Shown here in pieces: positions 18,001 through 24,000 of a stretch of DNA of 27,818 bases. Made by a program: the position numbers. The stretch is from IMG/VR virus record IMGVR_UViG_2740892369_000014; one strand, 5' to 3'. The DNA is from a virus (taxonomy: Duplodnaviria; Heunggongvirae; Uroviricota; Caudoviricetes). Within the stretch, counting starts at the first letter, position 1, and each line of letters begins with the position of its first letter.

Positions 18001-21000
18001 AACAATTAAACGGTAATGATTACCTTTTATGTTGAATACCACGCGCCGGTTTTTCAATATACTGGCCGTTCGGTATTGTGCCTTAATGTCTGCTGGGCTT
18101 TTCCAGTCAGCTTTTGCCGCCTCATCCACCCATGCCCTTAGCGGTTGTTCTGCATCAGGATTCTCCGCCCAAAAATCCCTGAGTGTTTTAACTGAGATAA
18201 TCTTCATAACTGTATAGTAGTCCCATTTTGGGACTGATGCAACAGCCCGCAATTACAAATTTAATAATAAACATGTTGACCAGTTAAATTTTAATTTGTA
18301 AATTGTATCCATAAACCCACCCCGCCCCACAGAACGCAGGGCAATACTTCGAGTTACCCGGCAGTGGTCAGGGGTTAAGTAGCCAGCCTGAGGCGTATGA
18401 ACATGACGGCGGGGATTACGTTTAACTATGCAGCAGGTTTTTTGTTCCGCTACCCCGGCGTTAAGGGGAAACAGAGGATTTCTCAGTGGGCGAAGTCAAA
18501 CATCAGAATGGAAGGCATCCAGGGATCAGCAAAGAAACAGCGATGGCGCTTTATATTGATATCAGCGCCATTGCCGGACAGGTAAGAATTATCAGAGCGG
18601 TAACTAAGCGGTATGCGCCTTTACTTCAGAAAGTCTCTGGTGAGTGCACCGAAGATATTGTCAACGATTTCGTCATCAAACTGCGAGGACTCATCTTCAG
18701 TTACAAGGTGACCACAATTTTTGCAGATGGCTCCCGCGAAACTGTCAGAGCCATGCGGTTTAAAGGATGTGTCAAAGACTTCGCCACCACATTCTGGGCA
18801 AGAAAACTTGATTGTATTCATAACCAATTTCCTCTCGAGTAACAGACCCCTCAGAGGATACCACCTCGCCTGACGTGGTTAAAAGCAGGCAGCGCTAACC
18901 ACAAGGAGCCGACATGCAGAAACGAGAACCCGTCATCATCGCGCCAGACTATACCGATGATGAACTTTATGAGTGGATGCACCAGAAAATTAAGGCAGCG
19001 CAGGACCTGAAATGGGCCAATGAAGCCAGGGCTAAGCAGGCTGAAAATCTGTCCGCTCTGGAGCAGGATATCACCAATCTGGAAAAAGCAGCGGCATTAA
19101 GCATTGCCAGAATGATTACATACCCGCGTTAATAGCTAACCAACGAAGCTAAGGTTGGTAATTAAGGAGTTCTCCACGGGTGAGGTGGAGTGCGTGCGCC
19201 GGACACGGGTGAGCATCCGGCACTGACAGTTTACTGAAAGGATATTTCCCTGAAAAGTCAGACCATAACGCGAAAGCGCACGGCGAGGTAGCTGGTTCAT
19301 AGATAGCCTGTCGTTAAATTTTCGTCGACCGTGCGCTTCCGGTTGTGGCAATCCGCGAAATGGCGCGGCGGTAAGTATGGCGGGGTTATTCCTTCCCCAG
19401 TTGAGGACACCGGGTTGTCAGGTTGACCATACGCTTAAGTGACAACCCCGCTGCAACGCCCTCTGTTATCAATTTTCTGGTGACGTTTGGCGGTATCAGT
19501 TTTACTCCGTGGCTGCTCTGCCGCCCTTTTTAAAGTGAATTTTGTGATGCGGTGAATGCGGCTCAGCGCACGCGGAACAGTTAAAACCAAAAACAGTGTT
19601 ATGGGTGGATTCTCTGTATCCGGCGTTAATTGTTAACTGGTTAACGTCACCTGGAGGCACCAGGCACCGCATCACAAAATTCATTGTTGAGGACGCGATA
19701 ATGGAAACGTTATTACCAAACGTTAATACGTCTGAAGGTTGTTTTGATATTGGTGTTCTGCTCAGTAACCGGGAGTTTACTGAAGATGCCATTAATATGA
19801 GGAAATATGAGCCTTATCTGCTCAATGATAATTCCATACTTTCCCGAATTGCTCTTCTTGAACTTGGTATTTTCGGAGAACGTCAATAACTTCAGCATTT
19901 GCACTGATGATGACGGTTTTTCTTATAACGGGTGAATCACAGAATGTGATTACCGGAATTTATGCCAGTAAAGAATCCTGCCTCCAGGCAAGAGACGAGC
20001 AAAAAATTTCTGGTGAATGCCTCCCGGTAAAAAAAGTATCGCTGTACCTGAATAACGAAACACCGGCTGGATAACCCTCCAGCCATATTAACACCATACC
20101 AACGGATTAAAAATGCCAGCAATGGCAGGGATTCGTTCACCCTGAAATCTGTAATGAGGTAAAACAAAATGAGTAAAGTCTTTATTTGCGCCGCCATTCC
20201 GGACGAACAGGCAATAAAGGAAGAAGGTGCAGTCGCTGTAGCCACTGCCATTGAAGCCGGTGATGAACGTCGCGCCCGCGCAAAATTTCACTGGCAATTC
20301 CTGGAACATTATCCGGCTGCTCAGGACTGCGCTTATAAATTTCTTGTTTGCGAGGATAAACCCGGTATTCCCCGCCCTGCCCTCGATTCCTGGGATGCTG
20401 AATATATGCAGGAAAACCGCTGGGATGAGGAGTCTGCTTCCTTTGTCCCGGTTGAGACTGAATCAGATCCGATAAACGTCACTTTTGACAAGCTGGCCCC
20501 TGAAGTACAGAACGCTGTCATGGTTAAGTTCGACACATGTGAAAACATCACCGTTGATATGGTGATTAGCGCGCAGGAACTGTTGCAGGAAGACATGGCA
20601 ACATTCGACGGACATATCGTTGAAGCGTTGATGAAAATGCCAGAAGTTAACGCCATGTATCCGGAGCTTAAGCTGCATGCCATCGGGTGGGTTAAGCATA
20701 AATGTAAGCCAGGTGCCAAATGGCCCGAAATTCAGGCAGAGATGCGCATCTGGAAAAAACGTCGCGAAGGTGAACGCAAGGAAACCGGAAAATACACGTC
20801 TGTTGTTGATCTCGCCCGCGCCAGAGCCAATCAACAGCACACTGAAAATTCAACAGGAAAAATCAGCCCGGTCATTGCTGCCATTCATCGCGAATACAAG
20901 CAGACATGGAAAACACTGGATGACGAACTGGCCTACGCTCTCTGGCCTGGTGATGTGGATGCCGGAAACATTGACGGCAGCATCCATCGCTGGGCAAAAA

Positions 21001-24000
21001 ATGAAGTTATCGACAACGACCGCGAAGACTGGAAGCGTATCTCGGCATCAATGCGCAAACAGCCTGATGCCCTTCGCTACGACCGCCAGACTATTTTTGG
21101 CCTTGTCCGTGAACGTCCGATCGACATTCACAAAGACCCTGTGGCACTGAACAAATACATTACTGAATACCTGACTACAAAGGGCGTGTTTGAAGATGAA
21201 GGAACAAATCAGAGCGCAACTGATACTCTCTCGTCGCCAGTACCAGAAACTGATGCAGTGGAAACGGCAATTCCGGACAACGAAAAAACCGAATGCAAAG
21301 TGGAAGTCGAACCATCTGTAGAGCGTGAGGGGCCGTTCTACTTCCTCTTCACCGACAAGGATGGCGAAAAATACGGTCGCGCAAACAAACTTTCTGGTCT
21401 GGATAAGGCACTGGCTGCCGGGGCTACTGAAATCACGAAAGAAGAATATCTTGCCCGCAAAAACGGAACATACACGGACTTACCGCAAAATGTGGATACC
21501 GCTGAAGATTCCGTACAACCGGAGCCGGTAAAAGTTACCGCTGACGAAGTAAACAAAATTATGCAGGCAGCCAATATCAGCCAGCCTGACGCCGATAAAT
21601 TGCTTGCTGCATCACGTGGTGAATTTGTTGAAGGGATTAGCGATCCGAATGATCCGAAATGGGTGAAGGGGATTGAAACCTGCGATTCTGTGAACCAGAA
21701 CCAGCAAGAATCGGAACAGAACGACCAGAAAACGGAACAAAACAGCCCAAATGCGCAACAAAACGAGCCAGAAACGAAACAGGAGCCGGAAAAAGCCTGC
21801 ACCGCCTGCGGTCAGACCGGCGGCGGTAGCTGCCCTGATTGTGGTGCGGTGATAAGTGACGCAACATACCAGGAAATATTCGATGAAGAGAATCAGCCTG
21901 AAGTTCAGGAAAATGATCCGGAGGAAATGGAAGGCACTGCGCATCAGCACAAGGAGAACACTGGCGGCAATCAGCATCATGCCAGCGATAGTGAAACTGG
22001 CGAGGCGTCAGATCCCTTAATTAAGGCGAACGGTCATCATAATCTCACATCCACCAGCAGAGCGGGGATTCATCTGATGATCGACCTTGAAACCATGGGA
22101 AAAAATCCTGATGCCCCGATTATCTCAATAGGTGCAATATTTTTCGATCCGCAAACCGGAGAGATGGGGCCAGAATTCAGCAAAACTATCGATCTGGAAA
22201 CTGCTGGCGGAGTCATTGATCGGGACACCATTAAGTGGTGGCTGAAACAGTCACGCGAAGCGCAATCCGCCATTCTTACCGATGAAATCCCGTTAGATGA
22301 TGCACTGCTGCAATTACGGGAATTTATCGACGAAAACTCCGGTGAATTTTTTGTTCAGGTCTGGGGTAACGGTGCAACTTTCGACAACGTGATTTTACGC
22401 CGTTCATATGAACGGCAGGGGATCCCCTGCCCGTGGCGTTACACCAATGATCGCGATGTAAGAACGATGGTTGCTCTGGGACTGGTGATGGATTTCGACG
22501 CAAGAACGACTATTCCATTCGAAGGTGAACGCCATAACGCTCTGAACGATGCACGTTACCAGGCGAAATACGTTTCAGCCATCTGGCAAAAACTGCTCCC
22601 GAGTCAGGCTGATTTTTGATGTTCAACCCATATCGCCGCCCACCAGCTATAGTGGCGGCGGTCATGCTGTAAAGGCACGTGACCACATGTACGAATTAAC
22701 TCTATCTCCAGCAGAGATTAAAGAGATCACGAAATACGAGCGATACACAAAACAGCAACACCAGTTAAGACTGCACGGCATCCCATTTGTAATCGGCCCT
22801 AAAAACGAACCCATAGTTCTCCGCAGGGATATTCCACACGGTCTGACAACGATGCCAAAAACATCTGAACTGGTTTCTGCTGAACCCGATTTTGAGGCGC
22901 TGAACAATGGGAAGACCAAGAAAAAATAAAAAAGATAATGTACTGCCACCGCGGGTTAGATCGAATGGTTACAGTTACGTGTGGAAACCCGAAGGAAGTA
23001 CAAGAAGTATAGGGCTAGGAAGAGTGCGGAAAACCAGCGTAGCTAAAGTCTGGCAAAATTATGAACTGGAAAAAGCAAAACTCCACAACATAATGACCGT
23101 AGCTAAATTATGGCACATGTTTATGGACTCCCCTGCATTTACAGAACTGGCCCCCCGAACCCAAAAAGATTATCGACAACATCAGAAGGCGTTGCTGATG
23201 GTATTCGGAAAAGTGCTTGCTGATAATGTCAAAACTGAGCAGGTAAGAATTTTCATGGATAAACGAGGGCTTGAGAGCAAGACCCAGGCAAATCATGAAC
23301 TGGCAAGCCTGAGTCGAGTATACGGGTGGGGATATGAGCGTGGGTATGTGAAGAATAACCCATGCAAAGGAGTCAGAAAATTCTCTCTTAAAGCCCGCAC
23401 TGTTTACATCACCGATGAACAGTATGCGGCGATATATGCGGAAGCAATTCCACAGTTACGCATTGCAATGGAGATTTCCTATCTCTGTGCGGCAAGACTC
23501 GGTGATGTGCTTGAGTTGAAATGGCAGGATATTATGGATAAAGGGATCTACATTGAGCAAAACAAAACCGGCACCAAACAAATCAAGGAATGGTCACCGC
23601 GATTACGTACAGCGATCCAGTTAGCCCGAAATGTATCTTCCTGTACATGCGAATATGTGATCAATACAACCAAAGGCGGGAAAGTCATAGCTAAAACGCT
23701 GAATAACTGGTGGAATCAGGCTAAACGCGCAGCCGAGCAAAAAGTTGGCGTTCCGTTCGGGTGCAATTTTCACGACATAAAAGCCAAGGGGATCTCAGAT
23801 TACGAAGGCAGCAGTCGCGACAAACAAATTTTCAGCGGGCATAAAACAGAAAATCAGGTGTTGATTTACGATCGTAAAACAAAAATCACACCAACACTGG
23901 ATTTGCCGCTCGTGGTTAGCAAGTAGACAATCCAGAAAAATTTCTGGCAAAAAGACTTGGTATACTAGCTATGAGCAACTTCCTAATACCTTGATTTTTC

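Follow-up and report, generated by a model that had tools for sequence, protein, structure and literature searches.

An intact ydfE-type prophage gene encodes a predicted single-protein DEDDh exonuclease that shares a central region with RecE

Lambda Exo and RecE digest in the 5'-3' direction and leave a 3' tail, which Bet or RecT takes over, whereas enzymes of the DEDDh type digest in the 3'-5' direction. According to a 2023 review (PMC11611040), the function of the N-terminal region of RecE is unknown, the nuclease domain alone substitutes genetically, and the full-length protein performs better in linear-linear recombination. The Qin prophage of Escherichia coli K-12 carries the gene order dicB-ydfD-ydfE-intQ, with the pseudogene ydfE (b1577) cut by IS2E after about 256 codons; in the dicBF literature, the operon is taken to end at ydfD. 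Here we describe, in a 27,818-nucleotide (nt) stretch of Caudoviricetes DNA (IMG/VR record IMGVR_UViG_2740892369_000014; hereafter, the window), a prophage gene for an exonuclease of 816 amino acids (aa). The family to which it belongs is already catalogued (RefSeq, PHROGs, and Pfam), extremely common, and functionally uncharacterized; literature searches that covered ydfE, Rv2179c-like phage proteins, and the combination of RecE with DEDDh yielded nothing on function.

The open reading frame (ORF; 20169..22619, plus strand, ATG start) was present exactly as given in a preliminary description of the window. Its product is 100% identical to the RefSeq "exonuclease" WP_000048499.1 and matched PHROG 2082 "exonuclease" end to end (1806 bits; residues 1 to 816 against profile positions 1 to 823 of 823). 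Residues 1 to 256 are 97% identical to the product of K-12 ydfE, and because the dicB-ydfD gene order is also the same, sequence comparison identifies the window gene as the intact form, or orthologue, of ydfE, a gene of the early-left operon of lambdoid prophages. The preliminary description had the domains right but overlooked both this identity and the RecE homology of residues 262 to 618. Taking the evidence together, we judge it somewhat probable (roughly 0.55) that the product is a single-protein nuclease acting on DNA 3' ends, with conserved N-terminal domains that are in part common to RecE.

PF16473 (Rv2179c-like 3'-5' exoribonuclease) was the sole Pfam domain found in the protein (residues 635 to 806; E = 1e-65; 221.3 bits versus a cutoff of 27; profile positions 2 to 177 of 177), and this match, together with a predicted DexA-like fold, bore out the C-terminal DnaQ-like 3'-5' exonuclease that had been proposed. 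In an AlphaFold2 model built with a 66-sequence alignment, the predicted local distance difference test (pLDDT) score of residues 634 to 812 was mostly 70 to 90, with a dip below 50 at residues 692 to 705. When the model was compared with the PDB by Foldseek, phage T4 DexA was the top match, followed by RNase T, ERI, Cap18, Orn/REXO2, and RNase AS (probability of 1.00 for DexA, RNase T, Orn, and RNase AS). The only solved structures matched by sequence were 8KEL and 8KEN, which are T4 DexA as established by tblastn against T-even phages and by translation of dexA from phage AR1. In a MAFFT alignment of DexA, a stand-alone phage homologue, and ten relatives, residues D639, E641, D739, H789, and D794 aligned with DexA D7, E9, D119, H186, and D191, respectively; the DexA paper gives D7, D119, D191, and H186 as catalytic and prints the glutamate as E12, whereas the DexA sequence itself has E9. 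All five residues were invariant across 99 close homologues. By sequence, the protein is a member of the DEDDh (DnaQ-like)/PF16473 family, with an active site predicted to be catalytically competent. A stand-alone DEDDh homologue of 190 aa (59% identity) lies at the end of the early-left gene block of phage PhiR55_1. Among the relatives from a representative search, one DEDDh-type protein of 752 aa (P0233) has K at the position of E641 and A at that of D739, so that catalytically dead versions of the fusion exist.

The Pfam family takes its name from the Rv2179c/RNase AS exoribonuclease, PGAP (the Prokaryotic Genome Annotation Pipeline) often labels homologues "3'-5' exoribonuclease," and RNase T, Orn, ERI, and RNase AS are among the fold matches, all of which would suit a 3'-5' exoribonuclease that might process or turn over transcripts of the operon, DicF among them, or RNAs of the host. 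We regard RNA as a very unlikely substrate, given that the DNA exonuclease DexA is the closest solved relative by sequence and by fold and that the same scaffold bears a double-stranded-DNA exonuclease in RecE (PMC11611040). Because DexA is also the nearest characterized relative, and because of the RecE scaffold, the substrate is most likely DNA.

The kinship with DexA raises the question of whether the protein might instead be an exclusion or defense nuclease of the HREX/EcD kind, which would degrade the 5-hydroxymethylcytosine (5hmC) DNA of invading T-even phages and so shield the lysogen. The family of the catalytic domain has recently been linked to the discrimination of 5hmC phage DNA. 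EcD, a DexA homologue of E. coli, cuts only 5hmC DNA and protects against T4, and DexA homologues are abundant in Escherichia and absent from K-12 (PMC12153337), which fits the truncated ydfE of K-12. EcD appears to be a different protein, though: its cloning primers imply a product that begins (M)IDTET, and a scan of the published EcD (HAK9828821.1) primers against the viral and metagenome contigs gave chance matches only. The 5hmC-recognition residues of DexA, W152 and D169, are not clearly conserved in the 816-aa protein, since they fall on T759 and V773 in the MAFFT alignment, although W756 and D775 lie near their positions; in the same alignment, the DexA tetramer residue D90 falls on D711, with A712 adjacent. 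PADLOC returned a single weak, generic DEDDh match. The gene, moreover, lies in a repressed early-left operon, together with genes for a division inhibitor and for lysis, and has no obvious lysogenic promoter. We therefore think a defense role of this kind unlikely, and a 3'-end nuclease of the phage's own early-left operon is the reading we carry forward.

The predicted build of the protein is modular, consisting of N-terminal domains, a disordered Q/N/E-rich and acidic tether of roughly 130 aa with a Cys4 motif, and the DexA/Rv2179c-type DEDDh domain. The AlphaFold2 model has three confidently folded domains (residues 1 to 205, 240 to 340, and 388 to 435), followed by two helices (457 to 500), and predicts residues 500 to 630 to be disordered, Cys4 motif included. 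In pairwise comparisons with the orthologues of phages mEp460, HannyBb, and Tritos, the ratio of nonsynonymous to synonymous substitution rates (dN/dS) was 0.04 to 0.12 on each folded domain versus 0.3 to 0.7 on the linkers, a pattern that coincides with the map of predicted folds. The N-terminal region, which had been described as conserved, has pLDDT values of about 90 or more on its folded domains and low dN/dS; no fold relative was found for the N-terminal head (residues 1 to 205). The Q/N/E-rich linker was likewise confirmed (22 of the 40 residues at 501 to 540 are Q, N, or E), and the 7-aa insertions of 823-aa variants fall within it, after residues 515 and 537. The CxxC-x7-CxxC motif (C544-x2-C547-x7-C555-x2-C558), described as a zinc ribbon, was retained in 98 to 99 of the 99 close homologues and in K-12 RecE, and is absent from more distant relatives. 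Because of this absence, and because the stretch has a pLDDT of about 35, it is a conserved motif for which the ribbon fold was not borne out and is only putative. Precomputed domain lists for homologues P0001 to P0120 give PF27430.1 and PF27432.1 beside PF16473, and curated Pfam models that cover the non-nuclease parts apparently already exist.

The same conservation bears on the idea that the gene is a functionless leftover of a decaying prophage. In its favor, the prophage of the window is itself defective, since a truncated portal gene and IS600 lie upstream, and the K-12 copy is a pseudogene; nevertheless, the low dN/dS extends over all folded domains, the catalytic residues are invariant, the ORF is intact (811 to 835 aa) in 80 of 80 related viral loci, and the gene occurs in isolated phages, which makes such decay hardly credible. 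At least 80% of the gene was found by megablast in 3525 of 5426 complete E. coli genomes, with a median of two matching places per genome and a maximum of nine, and in 17 phage records, including mEp460, Tritos, HannyBb, Evi, and PPompW phages. It thus ranks among the most widespread E. coli prophage genes, and as K-12 naturally lacks an intact copy, a phenotype should be easy to look for. A first homologue search with the full-length protein returned only relatives of at least 90% identity. The N-terminal region defines a small family, with 190 representatives (at 50% identity) at an E value of at most 0.001 among 1.84 billion proteins.

Residues 262 to 618 aligned by BLASTP with RecE residues 278 to 591 (38% identity overall; E = 2e-56), the alignment being near-identical at the "LLAASRGEFV.GISDPNDPKWVKGI" helices, the Cys4 motif, and the acidic tail. 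The helical core is common to both proteins from residue 262 on, and the acidic tether is homologous up to about residue 618; in this alignment, residues 388 to 435 have no matching residues in K-12 RecE. The RecE equivalog NF007259 scored 259.7 bits versus a cutoff of 1269, with the best stretch at model positions 446 to 603, a Pfam scan of the protein gave no match to PF12684, and BLASTP to the C-terminal nuclease domain of RecE gave nothing significant. Despite the common central region with its Cys4 motif, the protein is not a RecE orthologue, and the name "exodeoxyribonuclease VIII/RecE," which is used for it in several phage records, should be dropped. In phage vB_EcoM-606R7 (3670-6113 of locus L006), the annotation splits the exonuclease into ORFs of 306 and 455 aa, both named "exodeoxyribonuclease VIII"; the gene there is disrupted or misassembled, as well as misnamed.

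We examined the surroundings of the gene for an annealase. Among the PGAP-annotated genes of the identical locus there is no RecT, Bet, or Erf, and no annealase family was matched in PHROG scans of 30 annotated and unannotated ORFs of the window or in Pfam scans of further window ORFs. The ORFs scanned comprised all those, annotated or not, between the repressor and int, plus the hypothetical genes of the nin region; a hidden annealase in small nearby ORFs was rejected, as none of them matched an annealase in PHROGs or Pfam. The 816-aa protein itself contains no annealase-like profile or fold. In the rest of the prophage (44 kb upstream of the window), which holds genes for terminase, capsid, and effectors, a portal gene cut short beside IS600, and a second prophage, no annealase is annotated. 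The "beta family protein" of the neighboring prophage, which lies outside the window, proved to be PF14350 and not Red-beta. The same gene block without an annealase was seen in phage HannyBb, for which all 90 coding sequences were listed, and in the regions around the gene in mEp460, Tritos, and 606R7. Finally, none of the tblastn queries (K-12 RecT, a second RecT, lambda Bet, Exo, Gam, and Gp157) had a match around the gene in any of 81 loci (the window plus 80 IMG/VR loci, with flanks of up to 6 kb on either side); for annealases of the Erf and Sak types, coverage came instead from the PHROG and Pfam scans and the phage annotations. Both dicB and ydfD were found in 80 of the 81 loci, and in 73 of the 80 related loci the next ORF of at least 100 aa, almost always of integrase size, starts 250 to 300 nt downstream.

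The absence of a RecT/Bet/Erf-type gene, which had been noted near the gene, therefore extended from the window to the rest of the prophage, the phages examined, and the 80 viral loci; it is real and is the rule for the family. The view that an annealase-free layout is unusual had to be given up: in this family, which is very common, the arrangement dicB-ydfD-exonuclease-xis-int is invariant (81 of 81 loci). Both of the observations that the preliminary description had named as speaking against it turned out in its favor, the small ORFs holding no annealase and the DEDDh residues being intact. No gene for a single-strand annealing protein, whether RecT/Red-beta, Erf, Rad52/Sak, Sak4, or Gp2.5, was found with the 816-aa gene, which is not part of an exonuclease-annealase module of the Red or RecET type, and the locus should not be taken for a broken recombination module.

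The "recombination slot" of the preliminary description fits as to position, but the role was a positional inference only, and the polarity expected of a DEDDh enzyme is opposite to that of lambda Exo and RecE. One could still suppose that the protein is the exonuclease half of a Red/RecET-like system whose annealase comes in trans from another resident prophage or has its place taken by host RecA/RecFOR. The gene occupies the exo-bet/recE-recT position beside xis-int and has about 350 residues in common with RecE; enterohemorrhagic E. coli (EHEC) genomes are rich in prophages, with up to nine matching places per genome; and T4 DexA participates in double-strand-break repair during intron homing (PMC12153337). 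A 3'-5' exonuclease, however, yields no 3' single-stranded tails for annealases or RecA, and for this reason a partner annealase is not expected. With no annealase in the full HannyBb annotation, in the mEp460 and Tritos regions, or in any of the 81 loci, and with RecT kept directly downstream of the PD-(D/E)XK (PDDEXK) version of the same protein family, we find an in trans recombination partnership improbable, and the single-protein 3'-end nuclease remains our preferred reading.

Relatives with the common N-terminal region carry at least four C-terminal types: DEDDh, RecE-type PDDEXK (PF12684), a PHROG 2489/7838 module without a Pfam match, and a PHROG 26058 module. RecT lies directly downstream of the PDDEXK type in the Rac prophage of K-12 and at loci L012 and L013. 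The PHROG 2489 type is followed by an overlapping Sipho_Gp157 (PF05565) gene of 167 to 197 aa in all but two of about 55 loci, the exceptions (L014 and L055) having a shorter Sipho_Gp157 ORF of 148 aa that starts 114 nt downstream. These PHROG 2489-type relatives are 715 to 800 aa long, and the Gp157 start overlaps the exonuclease stop (L018 to L071; e.g., 8151-8663 in L019 and 8367-8927 in L041), which points to translational coupling and to a dedicated partner protein. Both the DEDDh and PHROG 26058 types are followed by xis-int, and the DEDDh type has no partner gene behind it in 81 of 81 loci. Exchange of the nuclease for one of opposite polarity would remove the substrate of an annealase, which fits the joint loss of recT; since the PDDEXK version keeps RecT downstream, the loss of RecT goes with the nuclease swap.

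The enigmatic N-terminal region of RecE thus appears as a reusable scaffold that occurs with different nucleases. Going further, the YdfE/RecE N-terminal region could be a general delivery platform, on which at least four unrelated nuclease modules are mounted, each with its own partner (RecT or Gp157) or none, and of which the DEDDh version would be self-sufficient and annealase-independent, a generalization that we offer as doubtful. In that case, the DEDDh version might act as a nuclease by which the prophage destroys the DNA of competitors or modified phage DNA. Alternatively, it might trim 3' ends and thereby steer host RecA/RecBCD processing of phage DNA, which is proposed because these phages also lack Gam. 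If the platform idea were true, the target of the common platform would explain the role of the N-terminal 560 or so residues of RecE.

For the single-protein 3'-end nuclease that we favor, we envisage that the gene would be transcribed together with dicF-dicB-ydfD-xis-int once a DicA/CI-type repressor is lifted. The N-terminal domains may supply a function shared by the whole family, for instance, oligomerization or the guidance of the protein to DNA ends or to a partner. The C-terminal domain would strip nucleotides from free 3'-OH ends by two-metal catalysis, with D639, E641, D739, and D794 predicted to bind the metals and H789 to act as general base, and the enzyme is probably dimeric, as is DexA. 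Its role would be DexA-like, namely, 3'-end trimming or DNA degradation during lytic growth, and it would work alone and not as half of a Red/RecET exonuclease-annealase pair, which agrees with the missing annealase.

The features of the gene and of its operon are listed in Table 1. RefSeq annotates the identical locus in the order ydfC, dicB, DUF1482 (ydfD-like), exonuclease, DUF4224 excisionase, and tyrosine integrase. The order dicB, exonuclease, xis-int that had been given is therefore correct, except that the small ydfD-like gene intervenes after dicB. A Shine-Dalgarno-like AGGTAA lies 7 nt 5' of the exonuclease start, and no sigma-70-like promoter was seen directly upstream of the exonuclease on the plus strand, which fits expression from the operon. 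The excisionase starts 67 nt past the exonuclease stop codon. Between the two genes lies a G+C-rich hairpin (22635-22661; CGCCGCC.ACC ... GGUGGCGGCG) with no T-run behind it, and the 81-nt exonuclease-excisionase intergenic stretch has a folding z-score of -2.2; expression of xis-int could be controlled at this hairpin, by processing or by attenuation.

Table 1. Coordinates in the window of the exonuclease gene, its operon neighbors, and the segments of the encoded protein
Feature	Coordinates	Strand	Basis or remark
DicF small RNA, same operon, upstream	19475..19526	+	Rfam, 75 bits
dicB, cell-division inhibitor	19701..19889	+	PGAP/RefSeq annotation of identical locus
DUF1482/ydfD-like small gene, directly upstream of exonuclease	19886..20074	+	annotation of identical locus
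Intact ydfE-type prophage exonuclease, 816 aa	20169..22619	+	RefSeq WP_000048499.1, PHROG 2082
aa 1-205, N-terminal head: alpha/beta (1-100) and helical (105-205)	20169..20783	+	pLDDT >90, dN/dS 0.05-0.07
aa 240-340, helical core	20886..21188	+	pLDDT >90, dN/dS 0.08
aa 388-435, small beta-hairpin and helix	21330..21473	+	pLDDT about 90-96, dN/dS 0.04-0.11
aa 457-500, two helices, stretch closest to RecE ("DKLLAASRGEFV.GISDPNDPKWVKGI" in RecE)	21537..21668	+	
aa 501-543, Q/N/E-rich low-complexity linker, predicted disordered	21669..21797	+	
aa 544-558, CxxC-x7-CxxC putative zinc knuckle, common to K-12 RecE	21798..21842	+	
aa 559-633, acidic disordered tether (predicted)	21843..22067	+	dN/dS 0.6-0.7 vs HannyBb and Tritos
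aa 634-812, predicted DEDDh 3'-5' exonuclease domain, PF16473 Rv2179c-like	22068..22604	+	catalytic D639, E641, D739, H789, D794
Excisionase, DUF4224, PHROG 1266	22687..22929	+	annotation and PHROG match
Tyrosine integrase, end of prophage	22907..23926	+	annotation of identical locus

Positions 169 to 24167 of the window are 99.95% identical to a prophage of E. coli O26:H11 FWSEC0001, and the entire window, right flank included, is 100% identical to strain 97-3250 (NZ_CP027599.1). The match to the FWSEC0001 locus (yccA flank) ends at about 24167, beyond which the window is another prophage remnant (24167-27818) with the type III secretion system effector gene espK (24738-26099, plus strand), mom (26948-27685, minus strand), and com. 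The exact junction at about 24167 was found in only three complete-genome records, namely, two assemblies of strain 97-3250 and one of strain 10_253. A second prophage on the same chromosome carries a dicB, DUF1482, 823-aa exonuclease, excisionase, and integrase block about 36 kb upstream of the window gene (exonuclease at 24658-27129 in L073, corresponding to NZ_CP027599.1 3292657-3295128), and between the two exonuclease blocks lie espM2, espW, and nleG effector genes and the portal gene truncated by IS600. The prophage in the window contains two toxin-antitoxin pairs, one HigB/HigA-like (17543-18252, minus strand) between the repressor and the dicB operon and the other ParD/ParE (9419-9981, plus strand) in the nin region. 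Gene calls conflict at 18621-18827 (minus strand), where PGAP places an ECs_2282-family zinc-binding protein, versus a 118-aa ORF at 18486-18842 (plus strand) that matches PHROG 21318 (E = 8e-67). The small RNA STnc100 (Rfam, 104.7 bits) lies near three phage tRNA genes in the late-regulatory region (4543-4715 and 5485-5736, both minus strand); the tRNA genes are Arg-tct, Arg-tcg, and a CAT-anticodon tRNA that is called Met by ARAGORN and Ile by PGAP.

Compared with described systems, the gene has the same early-left position beside xis-int as lambda Exo-Bet and RecE-RecT but differs in that the predicted polarity and fold of the nuclease are opposite and in that the annealase present there has no counterpart here. 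T4 DexA shares with the C-terminal domain the DEDDh fold, the catalytic pentad, and about 30% sequence identity and is the best match among solved structures by both sequence and fold, but it is a stand-alone protein of 227 aa from a lytic phage and has additional loops. Rv2179c/RNase AS, the founder of PF16473, belongs to the same Pfam family and has the same fold as the C-terminal domain, but it is mycobacterial, stands alone as an exoribonuclease, and matches far more weakly than DexA does. EcD ("HREX"; PMC12153337) is a short-form DexA-like E. coli exonuclease, absent from K-12, which, as cloned and assayed, is a separate protein. RecE (exodeoxyribonuclease VIII of the Rac prophage) is, like the 816-aa protein, encoded by a large early-left gene beside xis-int and shares with it the helical core, the "GISDPNDPKWVKGI"-type helices, the Cys4 motif, and the acidic tail, whereas the N-terminal head (residues 1 to 256) has no similarity to RecE residues 1 to 277, the C-terminal 5'-3' PD-(D/E)XK nuclease (PF12684) is swapped for the DEDDh 3'-5' domain, and the gene directly downstream is the excisionase gene instead of recT. 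K-12 YdfE, finally, occupies the same place, after dicB and ydfD and before the integrase, but lacks the RecE-like middle and the exonuclease domain, whereas the window carries the full gene.

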